A DNA stretch of 51,096 nt from Patescibacteria group bacterium (GCA_035269445.1 DATFJC010000012.1:1-51096), one strand, 5' to 3'; counted from the stretch's first letter, positions 1,211 to 45,580 are shown. Notes: a model not told the origin generated them from the sequence alone. A program made the numbers and translations.

Positions 1211-2881
1211 TTATTTATATTGTAAAACAAAAATCATTGGTTTTAAGCCACTTAAATTAATTCTTATTTTATTTTCAACCTTAAAACAATTCATTTTAGC
1301 CAACCCCTTATTAATCAAAGAAACTTCCTGACTTAAAATAATCATTTTTGAGCCAGAAATTAAAACCCTTTTCATTTCTTTTAAAAATCCAAAATAAAGG
1401 TCTATATTTTTACTATGCTTCCCACTTCTTATACCAAAAGGCATATCAACCACTACCTTATTTATTGAATTTTTAGCTAAAGGTAAATTAGTAGCATCCC
1501 AATGATAGGTCCTTATATTTTGATTAATATTAGAAATATTTTTTTGAGCAGACTTTAAAGCTTTTTTATTTTTATCAGCGCCAATTATTTTTTTATAACC
1601 CCCAGCTAAAGCCCTTTCAATTATAATTGAGCCTGAACCACACATTGGGTCCAAAAAAACATCTGTTTTTAAAATATCTGACAAATAAACAAGCAAATAA
1701 GAAAGATAAGGCTTTAAAGCGGTGCTTGATAAATCTTTCCTCCATTTTCTATTATAATTTAAAAAATCAACCAAATTAAAACCAATTAAAACCTGGTCCT
1801 TGTTTAAAAACCCCCTAACTTCTAAATTGTAATCTTTAGAGATTGTTACAAAGCCTTTTTCTTTTAACCATTTTTTCAAACCCTTCCCTAAAATGGGTCT
1901 AATATCTCTAGTCTTTAAATTCCTTAAATTTACAAAAAAAGCAAATCTATCTTTTTTATCAAATAAATCTGTTAAAAAATTAATATCAACTTGTTTTAAT
2001 CTTTGTTTTAAAAATAAGGGAGTTATTTCTTTTTTATTAATAATACTTATTAAAAAATAGATCTTTTTTAATGATCTAATTTTTCTCAATTCTTTGACAT
2101 CCCCTTTGTATTCAAAAACAATTTTACCATTAAAATATTTTAAAACCTTAATATTTATTTTTTCCTTAATGGAATTAATAGCTTGAGTTTCTAGCCCCTT
2201 AACTGTTAAGCCTAAATATTTATAATTTTTAAGATTTAAATTATTTTCTAATTTTTGTTTAATCTTTTCATTTATACCACTTCTTAGACTGTAGCCTAAT
2301 TGAGAAAGATATTTATTTAAAACATTTTTATTGTCTGAATCAATTATATCCTTATTTTTAATTAAAATTTCCTTTGCTTGACTACCCCCTATCTCATAAA
2401 TAGTTTTTATAACCTTTTTTTGAACATCAGCAAAAGAATTTTTTAAAACCTCTTCTAAAGCTGGCAAGGCTTTCTTAATTTTTGCCTTAGACAAGGCAAC
2501 CATGACTCTTGACTTTACCCCTAAATCATCATGTTTTAGGGCTTTTATAAGAGGGTTAATATTTTTTAAATTACCCTTTGTTAAACTTTTTCCTAAAACC
2601 AAAACAGCCTTTCTTCTTACTTTTTTATTATCATGATTTATTAAAGCTGCTATTTGATTTTCTATATTTTTTAAGTCTATTAGTAGATTGGTTAATTGAT
2701 GAGCCCATTTATTATCTGACTTAATCAATTCAACCCAAAATATAACTAAATTAGCCCCGACCTTGTCAGGGAGATTTTTTAAAATTATCATCTTCTCCTT
2801 TTTATTTTTTTTATTAAAAAGGTTTAAAGCTTTATTTATTTTTTTATTATCAATACTTTGAAAAAAATCATTTTGATTCAT
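1211..2881 (-). CDS. HEAT-repeat / THUMP-domain / class I SAM-dependent RNA methyltransferase fusion (RlmL/Trm14/TrmN-like, probable m2G type)
   Basis: 556 aa. The N-terminal ~190 aa hold repeated HEAT/PBS-lyase-like helices (KKVRRKAVLVLGK, DDLGVKSRVMVALSK, DVQKKVIKTIYEIG). The middle is THUMP-like. The C-terminal MTase has motif I LDPMCGSGSIIIERA and motif IV VVDMPFG. Confidence 0.7.
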   Translation of the reverse strand: MNQNDFFQSIDNKKINKALNLFNKKNKKEKMIILKNLPDKVGANLVIFWVELIKSDNKWAHQLTNLLIDLKNIENQIAALINHDNKKVRRKAVLVLGKSLTKGNLKNINPLIKALKHDDLGVKSRVMVALSKAKIKKALPALEEVLKNSFADVQKKVIKTIYEIGGSQAKEILIKNKDIIDSDNKNVLNKYLSQLGYSLRSGINEKIKQKLENNLNLKNYKYLGLTVKGLETQAINSIKEKINIKVLKYFNGKIVFEYKGDVKELRKIRSLKKIYFLISIINKKEITPLFLKQRLKQVDINFLTDLFDKKDRFAFFVNLRNLKTRDIRPILGKGLKKWLKEKGFVTISKDYNLEVRGFLNKDQVLIGFNLVDFLNYNRKWRKDLSSTALKPYLSYLLVYLSDILKTDVFLDPMCGSGSIIIERALAGGYKKIIGADKNKKALKSAQKNISNINQNIRTYHWDATNLPLAKNSINKVVVDMPFGIRSGKHSKNIDLYFGFLKEMKRVLISGSKMIILSQEVSLINKGLAKMNCFKVENKIRINLSGLKPMIFVLQYK

Positions 2882-5213: not shown

Positions 5214-5249
5214 AATCTAGCTGCCTTATTTTAATAAAAAAAGAAAAAA

Positions 5250-5271
5250 GGGAGAGTTTTTTAACTCTCCC
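5250..5271 (-). terminator. Intrinsic terminator between convergent genes (GGGAGAGTT-tttt-AACTCTCCC)
   Basis: Perfect 9-bp stem with a 4-nt loop. On the minus strand it is followed by TTTTTTCTTTTTTT. It lies 10 nt after the stop of the 5281..5901 gene and 37 nt after the amylase stop. Confidence 0.8.
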
Positions 5272-5280
5272 TAGCTTAAT

Positions 5281-5901
5281 TTAATTAAAAGTGTAAGCCA
5301 ATTCAAACTTAGCTACACTTTGGCCATCTTCTTTAGTAAAAATATTTGCATTTTTACTATCCTTGTTTCCTTTCCCGGCAAAAATTTCAAACCGGAAATC
5401 TTGAAAAGCATATTCTAAAGCTATGCCCAAGATAAAAACATCAAGATCGCCATTATTATAGTTTAGAATTTCTGGCCCCAAGCCTATACCTACTGTCCTG
5501 TAAAGCAACATGTGTTTTGCTTTATAATCTTCTAAATAAGCAGTTTCATCAAGGCTTAACAAATTCTTACTATAAAAATATAAAGGTCCATGCTTTTTGG
5601 AAAATACTCCTAAAGCATCATAGCTGTCAAGATTAAAAAATCCTTCACCTGAAAATGTAAAACAAAGGATCAAGCTTGTTTTAACATTTAGGCTCTTTAT
5701 CAAAAAGTTTGGACCAAGCCCCAAACTAAACGAATCTCCGCTTAACGGAAAAGCAGTATAAAGGGTGGTTTCTTCTTCTGTAAAGTAGCCTTCTAAAAAT
5801 AGATCATGATCAATAATCTTTTCAGCTTCTACATTTACTTCCCCAAAAACACTAATCGCTACTAATAGCGCGATAATAATGATCATTATTACCTTTTTCA
5901 T
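5281..5901 (-). CDS. Hypothetical secreted beta-strand-rich protein (signal peptide; alternating hydrophobic pattern; C-terminal ...ELAYTFN)
   Basis: 206 aa with N-terminal MKKVIMIIIIALLVAISVFGE. It has a GGAGG SD 5 nt before the ATG, its own consensus promoter and its own terminator. No family recognised. Confidence 0.6.
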   Translation of the reverse strand: MKKVIMIIIIALLVAISVFGEVNVEAEKIIDHDLFLEGYFTEEETTLYTAFPLSGDSFSLGLGPNFLIKSLNVKTSLILCFTFSGEGFFNLDSYDALGVFSKKHGPLYFYSKNLLSLDETAYLEDYKAKHMLLYRTVGIGLGPEILNYNNGDLDVFILGIALEYAFQDFRFEIFAGKGNKDSKNANIFTKEDGQSVAKFELAYTFN

Positions 5902-5943
5902 CTTTGCCTCCTTTTTTTTATTATCAAAGATCTTTGTATTTTA

Positions 5944-5972
5944 ATTATAATGAATTTATGGAATTTTGTCAA
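5944..5972 (-). promoter_or_regulatory. Sigma70-type promoter, TTGACA-17 nt-TATAAT (perfect consensus) for the 5281..5901 gene
   Basis: Minus strand reads TTGACAaaattccataaattcatTATAAT. The -35 is at 5972..5967 and the -10 at 5949..5944, about 45 nt upstream of the ATG. Confidence 0.6.
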
Positions 5973-16483: not shown

Positions 16484-17026
16484 CTAAACTTGATCTTGAT
16501 CAATAAATTCCCCCAAAGGTACATTGCCATTTAAACCTTCAAATTCAGGCAAATCTTGTTTTTTAGAAATACCAACTCGGCGCATAAATTCTAAGGTTAT
16601 GTCATAAATTTCATTTTCTTGATCTTTTTTCTCAATTAAACCCTTAATTAAAAGATTCCTTAAAATAATAGAACAATTTACTCCCCTTATTTCTTCTAAT
16701 TCTTGTCTGTTAATTGGACCCCTGTAAGCTACGATAGATAAAGTTTCTAAGGAAGCTGGGGTCATCTCATCACTAACCTCTTTTTTAAAAAAAGCTTTAA
16801 TAGCTTTGGCATTATCAGGATTAGAGGCTAATTGATATTTATTATTATTTTCTAAAATAATAATACCCCTATTCTGAGCTTTGTATTCCTGACTTAAATC
16901 TATTATTATTTCTTTAATTTCTTCTTTTTTTCCACCAGTTATTTTTGCAAACTCATTTAAACTTAAAGGCTTATGTGAAACAAATAAAAGACTTTCTATT
17001 ATAGATTTTAAATTTGTATTACTCAT
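16484..17026 (-). CDS. scpB: Segregation and condensation protein B
   Basis: 180 aa with IIESLLFVSHKPLSL and ...LETLSIVAYRGPINRQELEEIRGV. It overlaps scpA by 8 nt. Confidence 0.9.
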   Translation of the reverse strand: MSNTNLKSIIESLLFVSHKPLSLNEFAKITGGKKEEIKEIIIDLSQEYKAQNRGIIILENNNKYQLASNPDNAKAIKAFFKKEVSDEMTPASLETLSIVAYRGPINRQELEEIRGVNCSIILRNLLIKGLIEKKDQENEIYDITLEFMRRVGISKKQDLPEFEGLNGNVPLGEFIDQDQV

Positions 17027-17711
17027 ATATTTGCTTAATTATAATCTCCCCAAATAATTTTTCCTGATTTATGCTAATCTTGTTTTGCTTTAAAAGCTCT
17101 AAAGCAGCTAAAAACATAGCAGCTTTTTCTGATTTAGTTTGATTTTTAATAATTTTATTAAATATTATACTTTTTTTATTTTTTAAATATTTTTTTAAAT
17201 CAGAAATTTTCTTTTTTAAAGAAACTATTTTTATTTTTTTAATTTTCTTGGTAATTTTTAACTGCTTTTTTATTTTTTTTAATATTCCCCTATAATACTT
17301 ATTTAATAAGCTAGAAGATATAGCACTATTATCAGCCATTACTTTTGCTTTTTCAGGATTTTTTTCATTAAAAAAACTTGCTTTTTCACTTTTAGCTAAA
17401 TTTTCAATAGTAACACTGGCTTTGGCATATTCTTTATAAATTTGAAGTCTGTAAGCTAGATTATCTTCTTCTAACCCTTCCTCTTCACTGGGAACTACTA
17501 ACCTTGACTTTATTAAAAGCAATTGGGCTGCAATTTCTAAAAAACTTGCTAATTTTTCAGGTTTAATATCTTTTATTTTTTTAATTTCTTGTAAAAAAGA
17601 ATCAGCTACTTTAGCTAAAGATATATTACAAATATCAAGCTCTTGTTTTTTAATTAGTTTTAATAATAAGTCAAAAGGACCGCTAAATTGTTCTAAGTTT
17701 ACTTTATACAT
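17019..17711 (-). CDS. scpA: Segregation and condensation protein A
   Basis: 230 aa with the N-terminal FSGPFDLLLKLIKKQELDI signature. It overlaps the alaS stop by 8 nt. Confidence 0.88.
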   Translation of the reverse strand: MYKVNLEQFSGPFDLLLKLIKKQELDICNISLAKVADSFLQEIKKIKDIKPEKLASFLEIAAQLLLIKSRLVVPSEEEGLEEDNLAYRLQIYKEYAKASVTIENLAKSEKASFFNEKNPEKAKVMADNSAISSSLLNKYYRGILKKIKKQLKITKKIKKIKIVSLKKKISDLKKYLKNKKSIIFNKIIKNQTKSEKAAMFLAALELLKQNKISINQEKLFGEIIIKQIYE

Positions 17712-20514
17712 TTTTGCCTATTTTTGCTTTTATTCTTCTAACACCAGCCCCAGAAGACTTTTCTTTAATAATTTTAAAGCCACCAATTTCTCCAGTATGG
17801 TTAACATGGGGGCCAGCACAAACTTCTTTTGAATAATCACCTATAGAATAAACCTTAACAATCTTAGGATATTTTTCTTTAAAAAATGCCAAAGCACCAG
17901 TTTCATCAACGCGCTCTAAGGGCATTTCTTTATAGGTTACTTTTAAATCTTTTTTAATTTTATCATTAACAATATCTTCAACTTCTTTTATTTCTTTGTC
18001 TGTTAAAGGCTTGTCATGGATAAAATCAAAGCGAAGACGATCAGGCTTTAAATCAGAACCAGTTTGTTTAACATGATCACCTAAAACATCACGCAGGGCT
18101 TGTTGTAAAAGATGAGTAGCACTATGATGAGGAGCAACAGTTTCACCCAGCTCCCCTACTCCCCCAAACTTCTTTTTAACTCCAGCTCGAGATATTTTTT
18201 TATGTTCTTTAAAAGCCTTATTAAAATCTTTTTCATTTACTTTTAAACCATTTTCTTTTGCCATTTCATTGGACAGTTCATAGGGAAAGCCATAAGTATC
18301 ATAAAGATGAAATGCCTTTTGGGGATCTATTTCTTTTTTATTTTTTTTCTTAGTTTCTTTAACTAGTTTTTTAAATTCTCTTAAACCTTGATTTAAGGTT
18401 TTTTCAAATTTTTCTGATTCTTTTTGTATTATGGTTATAATATCATTATTTTTTTCTAATAATTTAGGATAAACATGTTTATATTTTTTTATAATATGCT
18501 TGGCCAGAACTGGCAGCATCTCTGACTTCCCGCCTATAAGGGATAAATATCTTATAGCCCTTCTTATAAGGCGCCTTAAAACATAGCCCCTACCCTTGTT
18601 TGAAGGTAAAACTCCATCAGAAATTAAAAAACAAATACCCCTGGCATGATCAGCTATTATTCTTTGAGCTTTTTTGTTTTCAATTTGTCCTACCTTTAAA
18701 AGTAAGTCTATTTTAACCATAATTGACTTAAAAAGATCTGTTTCATAATCAGAAGGCTCACCTTGCAAAAGAGCAGTTAGTCTTTCTAGGCCAGCTCCTG
18801 TATCAATGCTTTTTTGAGGTAATTTTTTAAATTTATTATCTTTAGTTAAATTATATTGCATAAAAACTAAATTCCAAACCTCAACAAACCTTCCACAGCT
18901 ACAATTTGGGCCGCAATTCTCTAAATCGCATTTACCTTTTTTAAACTCTTCTCCCATATCAATATGAATCTCTGAACAAGGCCCGCAAGGACCAGCTTCA
19001 CCAACAGGCCCCCAAAAATTATCTTTACTACCAAATTCTTTTATTCTTTTTTTGGGAATATATTGTTGCCATATTTTTAAAGCCTCTGTATCTTTAGGGA
19101 CATCTTCATTGCCCTTAAAAATTGTAACCCAAATTTTTTCTTTTTTAATATTTAGTTCATTGGTTAAAAAGTCTAAAGACCACTTTATGGCTTCTTCTTT
19201 AAAATAATCCCCAAAAGACCAATTACCAAGCATTTCAAAAAATGTATGATGAACCTTATCACCCACTTCCTCAATATCAGAAGTTCGAAAACATTTTTGG
19301 ACACTTACGGCCCTTTTATATTGAGGCTGCTTATCACCACTTAAATAAGGAATGAATTGCTGCATTCCAGCAGAGGTGAATAAAACACTTGAATCAGCCG
19401 GAACAATAGAAGAGGTTTTAACCACAGTATGATCTTTTCTTTTAAAAAAATTAATAAATTTTTGACGTATTTGATCAGATTGCATAATATTTTTATCTTT
19501 TTTATCGCCATTTATAACTTTAATTAAAAATAATCCACTATAGGAAATTAAAATAACTGCCCCAAAACCTACAAAAATAAGATCAAAGAATCTAGTAAGC
19601 AAGCTAAACGTTAATCCTAATTTAGCAGAAAGACTAACAGTTTCAAAGCCCAGTACACTTGCCCCTTCATAAATACCTATATTTCCAGGAATAACACTTA
19701 AGATCGAAGAAAATATCATCATTGCTCTTGCTACAAAAAGATCCATAATAGCAGGAATGGTTTTTTTCAAAAAAACAAAAAATAAAAAAAGTTGAGCCAC
19801 CTCAATAAAAAAAGCAAAGCAAGCAACAAAGACTATTGAAAACCAATGCTTGGGACCTTTTTTTAAAAACTCTACCATTTGATGGCCAACTAACTTTAAC
19901 TTTTGGGCTATAACAACACTTTTCCCACTAGATAAAGACTTAATTCGATTTAAATGAAGAATTTTTGTTAACCAGCCTAAAATTCTTTTTAATCCAAAAA
20001 CTTTTAAGCCAATAAATAAGCCAGCACAGGCTATTAAAATACCCAATAAAAGCAAGGCAGCTACTAAAAGATTATTACTAAAAATTGCAATAACAAAGCC
20101 TATGAATAAAAATAAGGAAAAACCAAAAATATCAAACAATCTATCTAATAAAACCGTTGTTGTGGCCCGAGAAATAGGAATATTATGATGTTTTTTTAAA
20201 GAAAAAATTCTAATTCCTTCGCCACCCCAATAAACCCCTGGAGTAGTATAACTGATAGCAATCTCAGCTACTCTAGAAGCTGAAAGTTTTAATAAGGGAA
20301 TGTCTTTACAATCAAATTTCTTTAAAATCAATTTCCACTTTAGAGTCCAAATAAAAACCCTAAAGGCTGTAAAAGAAAAAAGGGCAATCATTTGCCAACC
20401 ATTAAAAAGCTTTAATTTTTCAAAAACATGCTTAAATCCAATATGCTGATAAATAGCAAAAGCTACTATTAAGCCGAGTAAAAGTGATATAACAAATATA
20501 GAGCGCTTTTTCAT
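17704..20514 (-). CDS. alaS: Fusion protein: UPF0104/LPG_synthase_TM (MprF flippase-like, YbhN-like) polytopic membrane domain + alanine--tRNA ligase lacking the C-Ala domain
   Basis: 936 codons with no stop. Residues 1-343 form about 8 hydrophobic helices with the duplicated motifs TPGVYWGGEGIRIF and IPGNIGIYEGASVLGF. AlaRS starts at Met344 (ATG 19485..19483) with MQSDQIRQKFINFFKRKDH...FTSAGMQQF, HHTFFEMLGNWSFGDYFK and DTGAGLERL. Editing-site motifs are HHSATHLLQQAL and CAGPHVNHTGEIG. The protein ends at GVRRIKAKIGKNV. Confidence 0.8.
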   Translation of the reverse strand: MKKRSIFVISLLLGLIVAFAIYQHIGFKHVFEKLKLFNGWQMIALFSFTAFRVFIWTLKWKLILKKFDCKDIPLLKLSASRVAEIAISYTTPGVYWGGEGIRIFSLKKHHNIPISRATTTVLLDRLFDIFGFSLFLFIGFVIAIFSNNLLVAALLLLGILIACAGLFIGLKVFGLKRILGWLTKILHLNRIKSLSSGKSVVIAQKLKLVGHQMVEFLKKGPKHWFSIVFVACFAFFIEVAQLFLFFVFLKKTIPAIMDLFVARAMMIFSSILSVIPGNIGIYEGASVLGFETVSLSAKLGLTFSLLTRFFDLIFVGFGAVILISYSGLFLIKVINGDKKDKNIMQSDQIRQKFINFFKRKDHTVVKTSSIVPADSSVLFTSAGMQQFIPYLSGDKQPQYKRAVSVQKCFRTSDIEEVGDKVHHTFFEMLGNWSFGDYFKEEAIKWSLDFLTNELNIKKEKIWVTIFKGNEDVPKDTEALKIWQQYIPKKRIKEFGSKDNFWGPVGEAGPCGPCSEIHIDMGEEFKKGKCDLENCGPNCSCGRFVEVWNLVFMQYNLTKDNKFKKLPQKSIDTGAGLERLTALLQGEPSDYETDLFKSIMVKIDLLLKVGQIENKKAQRIIADHARGICFLISDGVLPSNKGRGYVLRRLIRRAIRYLSLIGGKSEMLPVLAKHIIKKYKHVYPKLLEKNNDIITIIQKESEKFEKTLNQGLREFKKLVKETKKKNKKEIDPQKAFHLYDTYGFPYELSNEMAKENGLKVNEKDFNKAFKEHKKISRAGVKKKFGGVGELGETVAPHHSATHLLQQALRDVLGDHVKQTGSDLKPDRLRFDFIHDKPLTDKEIKEVEDIVNDKIKKDLKVTYKEMPLERVDETGALAFFKEKYPKIVKVYSIGDYSKEVCAGPHVNHTGEIGGFKIIKEKSSGAGVRRIKAKIGKNV

Positions 20515-20527
20515 ACAAACAAAGGGT

Positions 20528-22123
20528 TTAGGAATTATTGTCTGATTTTTTTGGCAAGCTATCTTTTGTTTCCTTTTGAGAATTATCCTTTAAATCTTTT
20601 TCTTTTTTCTTCTTTTTTAAACAATCCTTACAGTAAACTGGCCTTAATCCATCTGGAACAAATGGCACATAAGTAGTTTTGCCACATTCACTACAAATAG
20701 CTTTATGCTTATCTTTTTTATTTTTTAAATCATTTAGATCCTGACCTTTTTTAATAAGCCCACTCCATCTAGCAATTTTATCCTCTACCACTTCTTTGGG
20801 TTCAGCATAACGCTCCCTAGAAGCTCTTATAATCTTTTCTTCATTATTTTCTGGCTCTGATATTGGCGGTAAAGTTATGGCAGAAAAGGGGTCTGAAGTT
20901 ACCCCATCTATCATAAGCTTTACATAAACATTATATTTATCCAAGTCTACTAAATCATCTTCAGTAAAACGAGGAGCAAACTCTCTAGATAAAAATTCTG
21001 CATCTTCAGCCCCAACCCTAAAAACTACCATTGTGCCAACATTTCCAAAAACTGCATTTCTAACTCTATCAGACTGATCCGTAATAAGCTGGCCAATATA
21101 TTGATGAGCTAAGGTTAAATTAAGATGATATTTTCTTGCTTCTGATAAAATGCTTGCAAACGACTCTGTAGCAAAATTTTGAAATTCATCTACATAAAGA
21201 TAAAAATCTTTTCTATCTTCTTCTTTCATATCCATTCTTGACATTGCAGCTAATTGAATTTTGGTAATCATCATTGCCCCTAAAAGAGATGAGGCATCTT
21301 CTCCGATTCTTCCTTTGGACAAATTCATTATTAAAATCTTCTCCTGGTCCATTACTTCTCTAATATTAAATTTCGATCTTACCTGCCCCACAATATTTCT
21401 TATAAGAGAAGTTGAAAGAAATTGACCTACTTTATTTTGAATTGGGGCAATGGCTTCTGTTCTTAATCTATCATGATAACGATTATATTCCTCAACCCAA
21501 AAAGATCTAACTACTGGGTCAGTTAAATTATCAACCACCTTACTTCTAAAATCTTTATCTACCAACATTCTCATAATCCCAAGCAAGGTACTATCAGGAT
21601 ATTCTAAAAGGGAAAGAATTGTATTTCTTAAAACATATTCCAATCTTGGTCCCCAAGAGTCAGCCCAAATCTTTTTAAAGACCCCAACTAAACCCGAAGC
21701 TACCAAATGTCGCCTCTTAGAATCAACTTTTTCTAAAATATTAAAAGCAATTGGAAATTCTGTATCAGCTGGATTAAAATAAAGAGTTTCATTTATTCTT
21801 TCTGAAGGGATGCAATTAATCATTTTCTCTGCTAAATCTCCATGAGGGTCAACAACCGCCACCCCTTTGCCAGCTTGAATGTCTTGATAAATCATATTTT
21901 CTATAGTAGTAGTTTTGCCAGTACCGGTTTTTCCTACTAAATACATATGACGCCTTCTATCATCCGTTCTAATACCAAACTTTTTATGCTGATTGCGAAA
22001 ATTAGTTTTAGCAAAAAGACATACATCGTCAGTATTTTCTTTTTTGATTCTACTTAAATTATCAACACCATTTTTTTGTGTTGAGTTGATTTTACTTAAA
22101 TTATCATTGTTTTTTTCTGACAT
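20528..22123 (-). CDS. Soluble TraD/VirD4/TrwB-like (type IV coupling protein family) P-loop ATPase with C-terminal CxxC-x17-CxxC zinc ribbon
   Basis: 531 aa. Walker A is LVGKTGTGKTT and Walker B region is FYLYVDEFQNF, followed by ARKYHLNLTLAHQYIGQL (TraG-D_C-like). The C-terminus is CSECGKTTYVPFVPDGLRPVYCKDC plus a K-rich tail. There is no N-terminal TM helix. Confidence 0.6.
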   Translation of the reverse strand: MSEKNNDNLSKINSTQKNGVDNLSRIKKENTDDVCLFAKTNFRNQHKKFGIRTDDRRRHMYLVGKTGTGKTTTIENMIYQDIQAGKGVAVVDPHGDLAEKMINCIPSERINETLYFNPADTEFPIAFNILEKVDSKRRHLVASGLVGVFKKIWADSWGPRLEYVLRNTILSLLEYPDSTLLGIMRMLVDKDFRSKVVDNLTDPVVRSFWVEEYNRYHDRLRTEAIAPIQNKVGQFLSTSLIRNIVGQVRSKFNIREVMDQEKILIMNLSKGRIGEDASSLLGAMMITKIQLAAMSRMDMKEEDRKDFYLYVDEFQNFATESFASILSEARKYHLNLTLAHQYIGQLITDQSDRVRNAVFGNVGTMVVFRVGAEDAEFLSREFAPRFTEDDLVDLDKYNVYVKLMIDGVTSDPFSAITLPPISEPENNEEKIIRASRERYAEPKEVVEDKIARWSGLIKKGQDLNDLKNKKDKHKAICSECGKTTYVPFVPDGLRPVYCKDCLKKKKKEKDLKDNSQKETKDSLPKKSDNNS

Positions 22124-41537: not shown

Positions 41538-42236
41538 CTAAACACCCCTTAACTCAGTCTCTTGAACTTTTTTTTCTAAAATACTTTTAAATTCTTTTAG
41601 TTTTTCCTCTTTTAATGGCTTTAATTTAGAAAACTCTTTTTTTAAGGTATTTTTAGGCCTAAATTGTTGCAGGGCGTGCTTTTTAGCACCCTTAACAATG
41701 TCTCCAATTTTTTTAATTTCTTGTTTGTCAATAATGCCTGGGACTACAGTTGTTCTAAACTCATAATTTTTAAAATTTTTAATAATTTCAACACTTTTTT
41801 TAATATCTTCAACATTACAATTATCAACCCCAGCTGCTTTTGAATAATTTTCAAAACTAGCCTTAATATCCATAGCAATAAAATCAAGCAAATCTTTTTT
41901 AATTAACTCTTTTATCATATCTGGATTTGTTCCATTGGTATCAAGTTTTATTAAGTAGCCCAAATCTTTAATCTTTTTTAAAAAATCAGGCAAACTTTTA
42001 TAAATTGTTGGTTCTCCCCCAGTCACAACAACCGCTTCAATAAGACCCTGCCTTTTTCTTAAAAAATTAAAAATCTTTTCTTGTTTTATTTCTCTTCTTT
42101 CCTCAGCTAATAATAAGCTCTTATTATGACAAAAACCACATTTAAAATTACAACCATTGGTAAAAATAATACAAGAAACAAGACCTGGATAATCAAGTAA
42201 GCTATTTTTTTGTAATCCTCCAATTGAAATAGACAT
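41538..42236 (-). CDS. nrdG: Anaerobic ribonucleoside-triphosphate reductase activating protein (radical SAM)
   Basis: 232 aa with CNFKCGFCHN (CxxxCxxC) and GGEPT. Its start overlaps the nrdD stop as TAATG. Confidence 0.9.
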   Translation of the reverse strand: MSISIGGLQKNSLLDYPGLVSCIIFTNGCNFKCGFCHNKSLLLAEERREIKQEKIFNFLRKRQGLIEAVVVTGGEPTIYKSLPDFLKKIKDLGYLIKLDTNGTNPDMIKELIKKDLLDFIAMDIKASFENYSKAAGVDNCNVEDIKKSVEIIKNFKNYEFRTTVVPGIIDKQEIKKIGDIVKGAKKHALQQFRPKNTLKKEFSKLKPLKEEKLKEFKSILEKKVQETELRGV

Positions 42237-45200
42237 TATTTTGCACTTTTAGAAAAATTAGCTCTATCTTTAAATTCTTCCTGTTTACCTTCGTTCCATT
42301 GTTCAACTGGCCTTAAATAACCTACTACCCTTGAATAAACCTCGCATTTAGTAGTTTTACCTTCATTTTTACATTTAGGACAATATTTTTCTTCTCCATT
42401 AATGTAACCATGATTTGGGCAAATTGAAAAAGTAGGAGTTAAGGTATAATAAGGAAGAGAATAATTTTTAGCAATTTTTTTTACTAAATTTTTTGTTGCT
42501 TTAATTGAGGGCATTTTTTCTCCTAGCCAAGTATGGAAAACAGTATTATGAATAAAAACCATTGTGTTTTTCCCGGCTAAATAATTATGATTTTTTTGGG
42601 TGGTTAAATCATAAAAATTATTATCTTCAACGTCTACCTTAGAAACATCTTGGACCCTTACTACAGAAAAATGCCTTTTAACCCTATTGGATATATTTTC
42701 ATTTATTCTTGATTTATTTACTGTGATAGTTAATTGGTCTTTTATTCTAGCAAATTCATAATTAGGAATTCTAATTCTGTATATATTTTTTTCATTATCT
42801 CTTTTTACCTTTTCCAAGCTTCTTCCTACCATTAAACCAGCTTTACTAAAGATAGGAACAAGATCGTCGGCTAGGCTTTTAGAAACAGTGTAATATTCAA
42901 AATCACCTTGTTTTTTATCTATATGCCCATCACTATCTGCTAAACCAGATAATAAATCAAAAACGTTATTTTTATTAAGATTCTTTTTAACTTTTTTTGG
43001 TATTAATACATCATAAACCTTTTCTCCATCTGAGAAGCCTATATCAAAGAAAAACTTCAAAGCTTCTTTTTTAGAAGTAGATATTTCTAACAATCTATTA
43101 CTTCTTTTGTCATTAGAAATAATATGCGCCTTACAGCCAAAATGCTTTTTTAATATATCCCTTGTCTTCTCAAGGGGTTTTTTATGCTCACTAAAAAATC
43201 TTATCTTATACTTTTCTAACTTGTTTCCTCCTCTATCGTCAACATATCTTGATATACAACCATCTCCCACAAAAAACCCAATAAGCCACATTAAATCTTT
43301 TCCGATTTTAGTATCTTTATCTGGATATAAATTTTGTGAATTTTGCAAAATATAATCTCCTTTTTTTAATTCGTCTGCCCTTTTCTCAACTATTTTATAA
43401 TTTGGTGAATTTTCATACTTTTTTCTGCATTTAGAATTATTTTTGATATGGTTAGCAAATCCCTTGATTCCTTTAACATTTTTATTGCATATTGGGCAAG
43501 TTTTTGTAGGTTTAATTTTTTTCTTAATAAAAAATGGGTGCCAATCAGAAGTAGTTATATCTAAACCTCTTTCTGCCTTTATTCTAACCTTGTCATGCTT
43601 TTCTACATTTACCCTCATCGCATCTTTAACCTTATCCCATTCACTCACACCCTTATCTGGATTATAACTCAAAACCTTAATAGGTTTTAAATCATCAAAA
43701 TTATTAACTATATTTTCTATATTTATCGCTCCCTTATTAGTCAAAACCTTATTCCCTTTTTCAATACAACCTCCTGTATATTTACTCTGAAGTGGATCTT
43801 GTAGGTCTAAGGCTTCAAAGATGTCATCTGTTAAACCAAAGGGAAGTTGAGTTGAATTAGTATAAACAGGCTCTTTTTTCCCCAAAGTATCAATATTATA
43901 AATCTTAATATCACCAAATTCTTTTTTATCATTTCTAGCCAAACGATAGCTTGAACCTTCGGCCGGAGTAGCTTCTAAATTAAATATGTCACCTGTTTCT
44001 TTTTGAAAGTCACCAAGCTTGTCTCTCATAAAATCTAAAATCTTTTTAGCAAAACTAGAACCTTTCTTTGTGCTAATATTAGTATCCTTTAAATTCATTA
44101 AAGCATCATTTACCCCAATTAAACCAATGGTAGAAAAATGATTTTTCCAATACTGACCTTGTGATTCTTTTACTTTTCTTAAATAAAATTTGGAATATGG
44201 ATACATCCCCTTTTCAGTTAAGTCCTCCAAAACCTCTCTTTTTATTTCCAAGCTTTTTTTGGCTTTTTCCATTAAGTCACCAACTCTATTAAAAAATTGT
44301 TTTTCACTACTAGATAAATAAGCAATTCGAGGCATGTTTAGAGTAACAACTCCAATTGAACCAGTTAAAGGATTGGAACCAAAAAGGCCACCACCTCTTT
44401 TTCTAAGTTCTTTGTTGTCTAACCTAAGTCGACAACACATAGAACGAGCATCTTCTGGTTTCATGTCAGAATTAATAAAATTAGAAAAATAAGGAGTACC
44501 ATACTTTGAAGTCATCTCCCATAAAGGATCTAGAGTTTCATTATCCCATTCAAAATCTTTAGTTATGTTATAGGTAGGGATGGGAAAGGTAAAGGGTCTA
44601 TCTTTGGCATCACCTTCAAGCATTAATTCTGCAAAAATTCTATTTAAGATATCAACCTCCTCTTGAAACTCACCGTAAGTTTCATCTTTGGGTTTGCCCC
44701 CTATTATAACTGATTGATCTTTTAAATAAGAAGGTACCTTTAGATCCATGGTGACATTTGAAAAAGGAGTTTGAAAACCCACCCTTGTTGGAACATTCAT
44801 ATTATATAAAAACTCTTGCATGCATTGCTTTGCTTCTTTATAAGATAAATCATCATATCTTATAAAAGGAGCAAGCAAGGTATCAAAATTAGAAAGAGCC
44901 TGGGCCCCAGCTGATTCTCCTTGCAAAGTATAAATATAATTTACCACTTGTAAAAGGGCTACATTAAAATGTTTTGCTGGACCAGATTCTATTTTACCTC
45001 TTACCCCTTTAAATCCAGATGATAAAATATCTTCTAAGTCCCAACCTACGCAATATACGCCAAGTGTACCCAAGTCGTGGATATGTAAAAAATTATTATT
45101 ATGTTCTTTTCTTACTTCTGGAGGATATATTTTTTCAAGCCAATATTTTTTCACAACCTTGTCAGCAATATGAACATTTAATCCTTGAAGAGAATAACTC

Positions 45201-45580
45201 ATATTAGAGTTTTCTTTAACTCGCCAATCTTTTTCTTTTATATAATTATCTATCAAAGAAGTGTCAGACAAAGCTCCATCAAATTCTCTTAACCTATTAT
45301 GCTGAGAACGATAAAGAATATAAGCCTTGGCTGTTTTATAATGACCACTTTCAACCAAACGACTCTCTACAATGTCTTGAACTGTTTCAACAGTAGGAAT
45401 TTGGCCTTTATCAGTTTTATTTTTTAACCTTTGAATTACCTTTTTTGTTAAATCTTTGGCCAAGTCTTTATTTGTACCACCAACTGCTTGAGCTGCTGAC
45501 CAAATAGCTTTAGTAATTTTTTGAGGATCAAATTTTTGAATTGATCCGTCTCTTTTTTTAATTTTTTTTATAGTTTCCAT
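42236..45580 (-). CDS. nrdD: Anaerobic (class III) ribonucleoside-triphosphate reductase, interrupted by an in-frame 408-aa intein
   Basis: 1114 aa with an N-terminal ATP-cone (IKKRDGSIQKFDPQKITKAIW), the ARSMCCRLRLD active-site loop and a C-terminal Zn site CPNHGY...CPKC. The glycyl-radical motif is SRVVGYLRPVEQWNEGKQEEF. The extein alone is 706 aa. Confidence 0.95.
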   Translation of the reverse strand: METIKKIKKRDGSIQKFDPQKITKAIWSAAQAVGGTNKDLAKDLTKKVIQRLKNKTDKGQIPTVETVQDIVESRLVESGHYKTAKAYILYRSQHNRLREFDGALSDTSLIDNYIKEKDWRVKENSNMSYSLQGLNVHIADKVVKKYWLEKIYPPEVRKEHNNNFLHIHDLGTLGVYCVGWDLEDILSSGFKGVRGKIESGPAKHFNVALLQVVNYIYTLQGESAGAQALSNFDTLLAPFIRYDDLSYKEAKQCMQEFLYNMNVPTRVGFQTPFSNVTMDLKVPSYLKDQSVIIGGKPKDETYGEFQEEVDILNRIFAELMLEGDAKDRPFTFPIPTYNITKDFEWDNETLDPLWEMTSKYGTPYFSNFINSDMKPEDARSMCCRLRLDNKELRKRGGGLFGSNPLTGSIGVVTLNMPRIAYLSSSEKQFFNRVGDLMEKAKKSLEIKREVLEDLTEKGMYPYSKFYLRKVKESQGQYWKNHFSTIGLIGVNDALMNLKDTNISTKKGSSFAKKILDFMRDKLGDFQKETGDIFNLEATPAEGSSYRLARNDKKEFGDIKIYNIDTLGKKEPVYTNSTQLPFGLTDDIFEALDLQDPLQSKYTGGCIEKGNKVLTNKGAINIENIVNNFDDLKPIKVLSYNPDKGVSEWDKVKDAMRVNVEKHDKVRIKAERGLDITTSDWHPFFIKKKIKPTKTCPICNKNVKGIKGFANHIKNNSKCRKKYENSPNYKIVEKRADELKKGDYILQNSQNLYPDKDTKIGKDLMWLIGFFVGDGCISRYVDDRGGNKLEKYKIRFFSEHKKPLEKTRDILKKHFGCKAHIISNDKRSNRLLEISTSKKEALKFFFDIGFSDGEKVYDVLIPKKVKKNLNKNNVFDLLSGLADSDGHIDKKQGDFEYYTVSKSLADDLVPIFSKAGLMVGRSLEKVKRDNEKNIYRIRIPNYEFARIKDQLTITVNKSRINENISNRVKRHFSVVRVQDVSKVDVEDNNFYDLTTQKNHNYLAGKNTMVFIHNTVFHTWLGEKMPSIKATKNLVKKIAKNYSLPYYTLTPTFSICPNHGYINGEEKYCPKCKNEGKTTKCEVYSRVVGYLRPVEQWNEGKQEEFKDRANFSKSAK
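42545..43768 (-). mobile_element. Class 1 intein with LAGLIDADG homing endonuclease inserted in NrdD (Cys1 ... His-Asn / Thr+1)
   Basis: The junctions are QSKYTGG|CIEKGNKVLTNKG and NTMVFIHN|TVFHTWLGE. Block B is ITTSDWHPFF. The two LAGLIDADG motifs are LMWLIGFFVGDGCIS and VFDLLSGLADSDGHI, and block F is NFYDLTTQKNHNYLAG. The element is exactly 1224 nt and in frame. Confidence 0.9.

Follow-up and report, generated by a model that had tools for sequence, protein, structure and literature searches.

A flippase-like membrane protein fused in frame to a short-form alanyl-tRNA synthetase in Patescibacteria, probably by read-through between two neighbouring genes

LysX of mycobacteria joins a LysRS, i.e. 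an aminoacyl-tRNA synthetase (aaRS), to an MprF-like lysyl-phosphatidylglycerol synthase, and ErdS of fungi joins an AspRS to DUF2156. Both LysX and ErdS contain the DUF2156 domain, which uses the aminoacyl-tRNA, and LysX is a paralogue standing beside a housekeeping LysRS. PplT domains are found on their own or joined to a wide range of enzymes, and one survey lists 148 architectures; the common partners are aminoacyl-phosphatidylglycerol (aa-PG) synthases, glycosyltransferases and kinases, while an aaRS partner goes unmentioned (10.1101/2022.03.11.483950). Housekeeping aaRSs may also be anchored to membranes. In 102 of 279 cyanobacteria the CAAD domain anchors ValRS, IleRS, LeuRS, GluRS, ArgRS, MetRS and CysRS; this small two-helix internal insertion was gained repeatedly, without paralogues, in class I enzymes and in cyanobacteria only (PMC4893482). 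Our literature search returned no description of a fusion between PplT and alanyl-tRNA synthetase (AlaRS), nor of membrane-anchored aaRSs in bacteria of the candidate phyla radiation. We describe here such a fusion in a 51,096-nucleotide stretch of DNA from a Patescibacteria group bacterium (GCA_035269445.1, DATFJC010000012.1:1-51096), referred to as the window. It is encoded by one open reading frame (ORF):

17704..20514, minus strand: fused ORF, PplT/LPG_synthase_TM plus short-form AlaRS, 936 codons plus stop, ATG start; identical with NCBI HKL16853.1.

The ORF is a single unbroken frame of 936 amino acids (aa) that begins with ATG. Its product is labelled in NCBI solely "alanine--tRNA ligase" (Patescibacteria group bacterium), a label that misses the membrane half of HKL16853.1. 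In a Pfam scan LPG_synthase_TM (PF03706) matched residues 8-315 with 106.3 bits (cut-off 33.4), over profile positions 2-298 of 302; tRNA-synt_2c matched residues 348-783 (511.8 bits) and tRNA_SAD residues 886-928 (63.3 bits). The same scan of the ORF gave no match to DHHA1/C-Ala, none to CAAD and, at E<=1, none to DUF2156, the aa-PG synthase domain. With NCBIfam, the "flippase-like domain" TIGR00374 matched residues 12-327 (63.1 bits, cut-off 43.2), and NF002436, the 595-position equivalog of short alaS, aligned its positions 1-593 to residues 344-933 (734.4 bits, cut-off 529); TIGR00344 also matched the AlaRS half. The fused protein is a new domain combination built from two well-known modules. 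An earlier description made from the sequence alone (the sequence-only reading) had proposed one 936-codon ORF, with residues 1-343 belonging to the LPG_synthase_TM family and a complete AlaRS core from Met344 (19485). The single ORF is confirmed, on the minus strand; PF03706 and TIGR00374 both claim the N-terminal part, and the end-to-end NF002436 match supports the complete core. That reading had also noted the absence of DUF2156, and hence an architecture unlike LysX, with which Pfam, NCBIfam and the fold search described below all agree.

In the nearest relatives the two genes lie 9 nucleotides (nt) apart in the same frame, so one base error would suffice to join them, and the 90% cluster of the fused protein has one 593-aa member. 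The fusion could then be an artefact, a miscalled stop or a frame error in sequencing or assembly having joined two separate genes. But the cluster holds seven distinct 936-aa sequences, 99-100% identical, drawn from JGI, ENA, NCBI and Logan contigs of 9-51 kb; they differ at 7 variable amino-acid sites across both halves and the frame is intact in all. The locus L093, from a separate metagenome, has a junction identical to that of the window, and between this junction and that of the unfused relative L005 there are several substitutions and two in-frame deletions, rather than a single changed base. The sole 593-aa member (P0126) is a contig-end truncation: its contig begins 111 nt upstream of Met344 and shows 18 mismatches in the first ~75 nt followed by perfect identity, as expected of a bad contig end. 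With seven variants of 936 aa from independent assemblies and sources, an artefact is therefore excluded for practical purposes, and we give it almost no credence.

The membrane half and its two motifs are located as follows:

19513..20514, minus strand: membrane half, MprF-TMD1/PplT flippase-like domain, residues 1-334 (PF03706, TIGR00374, AlphaFold2 model, Foldseek, dN/dS).
20218..20244, minus strand: motif TPGVYWGGE, residues 91-99, putative tip of the first re-entrant hairpin (equivalent of transmembrane element TM3).
19657..19692, minus strand: motif IPGNIGIYEGAS, residues 275-286, putative tip of the second re-entrant hairpin (TM7 equivalent), holding E283.

In MprF, TMD1 consists of eight elements, TM1-8, with TM3 and TM7 folding back as re-entrant hairpins; loop 5-6 touches the cytoplasmic synthase domain and the cytoplasmic end of TM8 leads into TMD2 (PMC11980842). 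Kyte-Doolittle segmentation of the membrane half merged and split helices, and was replaced by an AlphaFold2 model of residues 1-343 used together with this published topology. The model is of moderate confidence (pLDDT 69, pTM 0.68). Its helices span residues 3-25, 39-66, 74-110, 114-147, 149-172, 221-249, 256-292 and 297-334, and the short helix pairs 74-90/96-110 and 256-272/281-292 form two hairpin-like elements. Both motifs fall where the model has low confidence and its helices break (92-96 and 272-279). When the model was compared with the PDB by Foldseek, the top five matches were all MprF structures (9j8s, 9j8q, 9goe, 7duw and 6lvf; probability 1.00, query-normalised TM-score ~0.5) and all others had a probability of at most 0.2. 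Thus the sequence-only reading, which saw about eight hydrophobic helices with two motifs and recognised UPF0104/LPG_synthase_TM, was correct: the motifs lie at the hairpin breaks and the fold is that of MprF. A sequence profile search of the PDB with the alignment of the membrane half returned no MprF, only spurious PDZ matches. E283 and R308 lie at the places in the TM7 and TM8 equivalents where the PaMprF pair E295-R319 would be expected, and by location, not by residue alignment, they are candidate counterparts of that pair.

The residues that are invariant in the family are all kept in the membrane half: T91, P92, G97, G98 and E99, which do not vary even in distant relatives, P276, G280, G284, R308 (TM8 equivalent) and others; E283 is replaced by D in one distant relative. 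Between the window and L005 the ratio of nonsynonymous to synonymous change (dN/dS, Nei-Gojobori) is ~0.17 in both halves (membrane half 0.178/1.07, AlaRS half 0.156/0.92). These substitution patterns indicate that the membrane half is under purifying selection and not decaying. The half is a genuine PplT/UPF0104/MprF-TMD1 protein. K and R residues number 15 in the predicted inside loops and 5 outside; the helices of the model, fitted to the MprF topology, would place the N-terminus, the long K/R-rich segment 173-220 and the C-terminal tail inside. By analogy with MprF, TM8 would end on the cytoplasmic side, therefore a domain appended after it would be cytoplasmic, as an AlaRS needs. There is no hydrophobic segment in residues 344-936; the last helix ends at 334, so that an MprF-type TMD2 is absent.

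The AlaRS half comprises:

17707..19485, minus strand: AlaRS half, residues 344-936, catalytic, tRNA-recognition and editing regions, without C-Ala (NF002436, TIGR00344).
18166..19473, minus strand: tRNA-synt_2c, class II AlaRS catalytic and tRNA-recognition region, residues 348-783 (Pfam).
17731..17859, minus strand: tRNA_SAD, core of the editing domain, residues 886-928 (Pfam).

The zinc-binding motifs of the editing domain are present in the translation, HxxxH as HSATH (H797-H801) and CxxxH as CAGPH (C899-H903). The closest relatives, P0003 and P0004 (593-595 aa, loci L002 and L005), are unfused and 77% identical to this half. The protein search covered 5.8 billion proteins, of which the best 120 AlaRS relatives were examined: 118 are unfused and measure 568-720 aa, nearly all of them ~580-640 aa. 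Since all close relatives are short, the missing C-Ala domain is the norm of the lineage, and of NF002436, and not a trait of the fusion. The "C-Ala-less" character pointed out by the sequence-only reading is thus real, as no C-Ala/DHHA1 match exists, but it is not special. Judging from sequence and gene order, the AlaRS half is orthologous to an ordinary housekeeping alaS and shares its synteny.

The place where the two halves meet contains three elements:

19486..19512, minus strand: nine-residue junction NGDKKDKNI, residues 335-343, derived from what had been the C-terminal tail, stop codon and spacer in the membrane-protein gene.
19492..19494, minus strand: AAA codon of Lys341, site of the stop-codon loss, aligned with TAA of L005.
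19483..19485, minus strand: ATG of Met344, the ancestral alaS start, kept, with an unstructured A-rich upstream region.

In L005 the junction reads ...tgt TAA ttt ata tat ATG, the two genes sharing one frame across a spacer of 9 nt. When the two loci are aligned base by base, TAA of L005 corresponds to AAA in the window, and the indels around it are in-frame deletions of 6 and 3 nt alone. The origin of the fusion can thus be read at single-base resolution, and this alignment shows that a stop codon was lost where two genes lay very close together.

The start codon of the former alaS was retained. We compared the context of Met344 with those of 46 true starts and of 234 internal ATGs of the window. 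True starts in the window sit in A-rich, GC-poor, unstructured RNA. The free energy (dG) is -4.1 kcal/mol for Met344 versus -4.3 for true starts and -8.7 for internal ATGs; the upstream GC fraction is 0.17 versus 0.16 and 0.33, and the upstream A fraction 0.60 versus 0.46 and 0.34, respectively. Just 3-10% of the 234 internal ATGs are as start-like as Met344. A Shine-Dalgarno-like core is found upstream of 2 of 46 window genes. Met344 has none, which is uninformative because this signal is nearly unused. A sigma-70 promoter scan around Met344 was likewise uninformative (13 matches versus 12.3 expected). Met344 had been suggested as an internal start, and its context is indeed indistinguishable from that of true starts in a genome nearly free of Shine-Dalgarno sequences. 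Therefore, as far as sequence context can tell, the window gene probably yields a free AlaRS from Met344 in addition to the membrane-anchored full-length protein.

Only two fused clusters, that of the window and P0002, appeared among the best 120 AlaRS relatives; the fusion is not widespread there. A profile search with an alignment that included full-length P0002, and thereby AlaRS columns, returned AlaRS for all of the best 150 matches, none with an N-terminal extension matching the membrane part. The scan of GTDB genomes with the AlaRS half was dominated by the generic motif WNLVFMQY and was of no survey value; the P0002 contig was the sole close relative among the matches listed. A word-indexed protein search with the membrane half alone gave merely 4 matches, because this domain evolves too fast for the index. 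Further relatives were found by a metagenome scan with an alignment of the membrane domain restricted to the clade, and all loci were classified by hmmsearch/phmmer.

The orthologue of the membrane-protein gene (hereafter TM gene) lies directly upstream of alaS wherever the contig covers the downstream flank, L095 being too short to judge. The two genes are separate in L002, L005, L087, L096, L097 and L098, and fused in the window/L093 and in L001. The gene order shared is ruvX, GT4, a TrwB-like ATPase with zinc finger, TM gene, alaS, (ybaK), scpA, scpB and murC; this synteny, with adjacent TM gene and alaS, is seen in L002, L005/L006, L087/L088, L096, L097 and L098. In the contigs of P0003 and P0004 the separate TM gene encodes 342-368 aa. 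Where the junction is close the spacer measures 2-9 nt or the ORFs abut; in L087 (64% AlaRS identity; 13 contigs) the genes are 2 nt apart. L002 has an insertion of ~0.8 kb between TM gene and alaS. In the region 5217..5960 lies a 189-aa ORF, lysine-rich and with internal repeats, that has no Pfam match. Although the genome is otherwise AT-rich, this ORF has a GC-rich sequence resembling a hairpin on either side (gggcggtcgaaccgtcaccc... and gggcggtcagaccgccttacggcggtttgaccgccacc). The inserted piece may represent a small mobile element or a structured RNA. In the 1.75 kb contig of L097, alaS has an in-frame stop after ~50 codons (...VPYCRW*, ~1220..1380), which is probably a sequencing error. 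P0040 (59% AlaRS identity) has a different neighbourhood with no TM gene beside alaS, and more distant paralogues of the TM gene (50-70 bits) have no alaS nearby.

The second fused protein, P0002 (963 aa, locus L001), belongs to another subclade. Subclade A contains the window (fused), L005 and L002, with AlaRS identities of 78% between the window and each of the others (aligned halves) and of 80% between L005 and L002. Subclade B contains L001 (fused), L087, L089, L096, L098 and L100, where L001 is 66-71% identical in AlaRS to the others (70-71% to the unfused L087, L096 and L098, with which it groups). The AlaRS parts of the two fused proteins are only 64% identical to each other. Distance matrices and neighbour-joining for both halves gave a TM tree congruent with the AlaRS tree. 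Because the fused proteins group with unfused relatives, share 64% identity and show congruent trees, two independent fusions of the same pair are the parsimonious reading of these sequences. In L001 the codon aligned to the ancestral alaS ATG is ATA, and the N/Q-rich linker of ~30 residues has no in-frame ATG, GTG or TTG; from this sequence AlaRS is apparently made there only as a fusion. The contig of L001/L007 (CAZMTM010000051.1, 5.7 kb) was deposited as "uncultured Gammaproteobacteria bacterium" from a binchicken co-assembly bin. It is probably mis-binned, its genes and synteny being clearly Patescibacteria-like.

Elsewhere in the clade the TM gene is disrupted. In L089 (1142..1704) ~165 codons were deleted internally, with a change of frame, while alaS is intact; the deletion joins the first hairpin motif (TPGIHYG) to the second (IPAMLGVYEG), exactly between these related motifs. 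In L099 (3914..5001) and L100 (1977..3064) a mid-gene frameshift splits the TM gene into two ORFs, and alaS is again intact. The TM gene is therefore dispensable for AlaRS. The tight gene boundary is mutationally fragile in both directions.

These data bear on a possible functional coupling of the two halves. The tethered AlaRS would feed Ala-tRNA(Ala) to a separate putative transferase that alanylates a lipid or wall precursor, PplT would translocate the product, and adjacency and repeated fusion would result from selection for co-localisation, as in a split LysX-like module. Such a link would account for the adjacency, kept although the TM domain diverged to ~35% identity, for the two independent fusions, and for P0002, where the loss of the internal start apparently leaves all AlaRS membrane-bound. 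PplT domains are moreover usually fused to lipid-modifying enzymes, and these PplT domains are thought to gain substrate preference by local concentration; LysX and MprF are established precedents for lipid modification dependent on aminoacyl-tRNA. However, all window ORFs of at least 200 aa were scanned with Pfam (ScpA/B and RuvX being named by synteny), and neither these ORFs nor the fused ORF itself contain DUF2156, FemAB or another aminoacyl-transferase. The flanking genes are all conserved too, so that adjacency is not specific to this pair; L002 tolerates a 189-aa ORF between the two genes, the TM gene is deleted (L089) or frameshifted (L099/L100) beside an intact alaS, and the AlaRS half is orthologous to an ordinary alaS. 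Functional coupling is thus unlikely, and the channelling of Ala-tRNA(Ala) to lipid aminoacylation or to a Fem-type branch, put forward by the sequence-only reading, finds no support. A bolder form of this idea, to which we give still less weight, holds that the putative transferase alanylates a scavenged lipid or wall precursor, that PplT flips the product, and that the fusions are selected steps towards a LysX-like machine without DUF2156, one of them now obligate.

Membrane anchoring could itself have been selected, as with CAAD. Tethering would localise or regulate the charging of tRNA(Ala), e.g. near membrane-bound ribosomes or the energy supply, and PplT would serve mainly as an anchor. 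The repeated gain of CAAD without paralogues in 102 of 279 cyanobacteria is a precedent, P0002 has no internal start, and the fusion is kept in 7 of 7 population variants. But Met344 of the window gene still looks in every respect like a start, the fusion is rare, occurring in 2 of the ~10 lineages sampled, and the membrane half has kept a flippase-like domain whose motifs are under purifying selection, which goes beyond the needs of an anchor. We therefore hold selection for anchoring to be improbable, somewhat more so than the plain form of functional coupling.

The fused gene might also be a non-housekeeping paralogue of alaS, or its membrane half a decaying pseudogene remnant serving as a 5' leader. 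No second alaS was found among the scanned ORFs, over the 51 kb of this one contig, and a contig of this size together with the decay of TM genes in sister lineages leaves some room for this explanation. It is at odds with the score of 734 bits against an alaS equivalog cut-off of 529, with the syntenic position, which is that of the only alaS seen in relatives, and with intact editing and catalytic domains. Nor does the membrane half look like a remnant, given its dN/dS of ~0.17, its invariant residues and seven variants free of frameshift or stop. This explanation appears very improbable, below all the preceding ones except the artefact.

We favour, as probable though well short of certain, a lineage-specific read-through fusion of two conserved co-directional neighbours in which each half keeps its ancestral job. 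The fusion is real and arose twice in the clade, and nothing points to a new biochemical function. In the clade a stand-alone PplT/MprF-flippase-like gene sits immediately upstream of a short-form alaS, within a housekeeping syntenic block. In the window lineage the stop codon TAA of the TM gene became AAA (Lys), and with in-frame indels alone around it the frames were joined through a nine-residue lysine-rich junction. In the second subclade the same pair fused independently (P0002), followed by the change of ATG to ATA and by growth of the linker. The AlaRS half would stay cytoplasmic and could still bind ATP, alanine and tRNA(Ala), so the fusion would be tolerated. The membrane half would keep its role in lipid translocation or scrambling and the AlaRS half the charging and editing of tRNA(Ala) for translation. 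One mRNA of the window gene probably gives two products, a ~108 kDa membrane-anchored PplT-AlaRS and a ~68 kDa free AlaRS from Met344. This scheme would imply no alanylation chemistry on lipid or peptidoglycan.

Several points weigh against this read-through scheme. Two fusions, and an adjacency kept down to ~35% TM identity, are equally expected from a functional (Rosetta-stone) link, and the neutral tolerance of the fusion is an unproven assumption. The same holds for the binding of tRNA by an AlaRS pinned so near the membrane, as the nine-residue linker is short. The fused gene would be the single alaS as judged from a 51 kb contig, and the P0002 fusion was seen on one 5.7 kb contig. The trees were built by neighbour joining and carry no bootstrap values. 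L099 and L100, although from different metagenomes, are identical over the 1,088 nt compared and maybe not independent; their frameshift could be real or a shared homopolymer sequencing error.

The fused gene is flanked by two genes of the conserved block:

17019..17711, minus strand: scpA, with its first 8 nt inside the 3' end of the fused ORF; conserved downstream synteny scpA-scpB-murC.
20528..22123, minus strand: TrwB/TraG-like ATPase with a C-terminal treble-clef zinc finger, ending 13 nt before the fused ORF.

This ATPase, which resembles type IV coupling proteins, is directly upstream of the TM gene or TM half in the window, L001, L002, L005 and L087. The products scanned in the window include RpoB/C, two Mur ligases, ScpA/B, the TrwB-like ATPase, GT4, RuvX, Map, Adk and SecY, and further ribosomal proteins, EF-Tu, Ndk, ComEC, NrdD/G, a release factor (RF), HtrA and others. 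The fused gene lies within a long housekeeping block (rpoBC, mur, scpAB, alaS, ruvX, map, adk, secY, ribosomal protein genes, tuf). The envelope-related neighbours noted beforehand do exist, as GT4 (MraY/WecA family) and two Mur ligases, but within this housekeeping block and not in a dedicated envelope operon. Almost all catalogued genes of the window (45 of 46) are on the minus strand and the GC skew is uniformly negative; no tRNA gene was found in the 51 kb. The anaerobic ribonucleotide reductase NrdD (1114 aa, 42236..45580, minus strand) is broken by an intein that contains a LAGLIDADG homing endonuclease (Intein_splicing 726-1012, LAGLIDADG_3 876-945), with its radical-SAM activase just downstream (41538..42236). 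At 1211..2881 (minus strand) lies the gene of a 556-aa protein that has HEAT repeats in its N-terminal part and an RMKL-like/UPF0020 methyltransferase domain at its C-terminus.

The clade preserves every stage of a fusion: a spacer of 2-9 nt, loss of the stop with an internal start, then loss of the start with growth of the linker. It also shows the alternative outcomes, in which the upstream gene is deleted or frameshifted. It is a useful natural series for studying how an essential gene comes to be fused to another, and how the fusion is then fixed, when genomes are compact. The repeated fusion may reflect selection, or mutational ease together with topological compatibility. To deduce from the fused protein, by Rosetta-stone reasoning, a link between AlaRS and lipid aminoacylation would be an over-interpretation.

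Compared with the PplT/UPF0104/YbhN/MprF-TMD1 family, the membrane half has the same fold, eight TM elements and two re-entrant hairpin motifs, and its conserved acidic E283 and basic R308 are candidate equivalents of the TM7-TM8 pair. It differs by its partner, which is a translation enzyme and not a lipid-modifying one, and by the absence of both MprF TMD2 and the synthase domain. With LysX and ErdS the fused protein shares the presence of an aaRS and a part of the MprF machinery in one polypeptide. Unlike them it has no DUF2156; unlike the paralogue LysX, its AlaRS half is an orthologue of ordinary alaS, and the order is different, with the membrane domain N-terminal and the aaRS C-terminal. 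Because TMD2 and DUF2156 are both absent, the fused protein is neither an MprF nor LysX-like in the defining sense. Short-form AlaRSs (NF002436/PRK01584, ~595 aa, no C-Ala) are matched end to end by residues 344-936, the difference being the 343-residue N-terminal membrane extension.

As in the CAAD-aaRSs, a housekeeping aaRS would here be membrane-bound through a gained TM domain, in a recurrent and lineage-specific manner and with no paralogue in the 51 kb seen. The differences are a whole 8-TM flippase-like protein at the N-terminus, a class II enzyme, a host among the Patescibacteria and an origin by stop-codon loss. As a protein it resembles the CAAD enzymes in its membrane anchoring only. 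If the full-length product is made and active, it would be a membrane-anchored class II housekeeping aaRS outside cyanobacteria, and the P0002 fusion would be apparently the only form of AlaRS in a second lineage. Phylum, enzyme class and type of anchor would then all be new with respect to the CAAD precedent. By this analogy, the CAAD-anchored aaRSs are the closest functional counterpart of the fused product.

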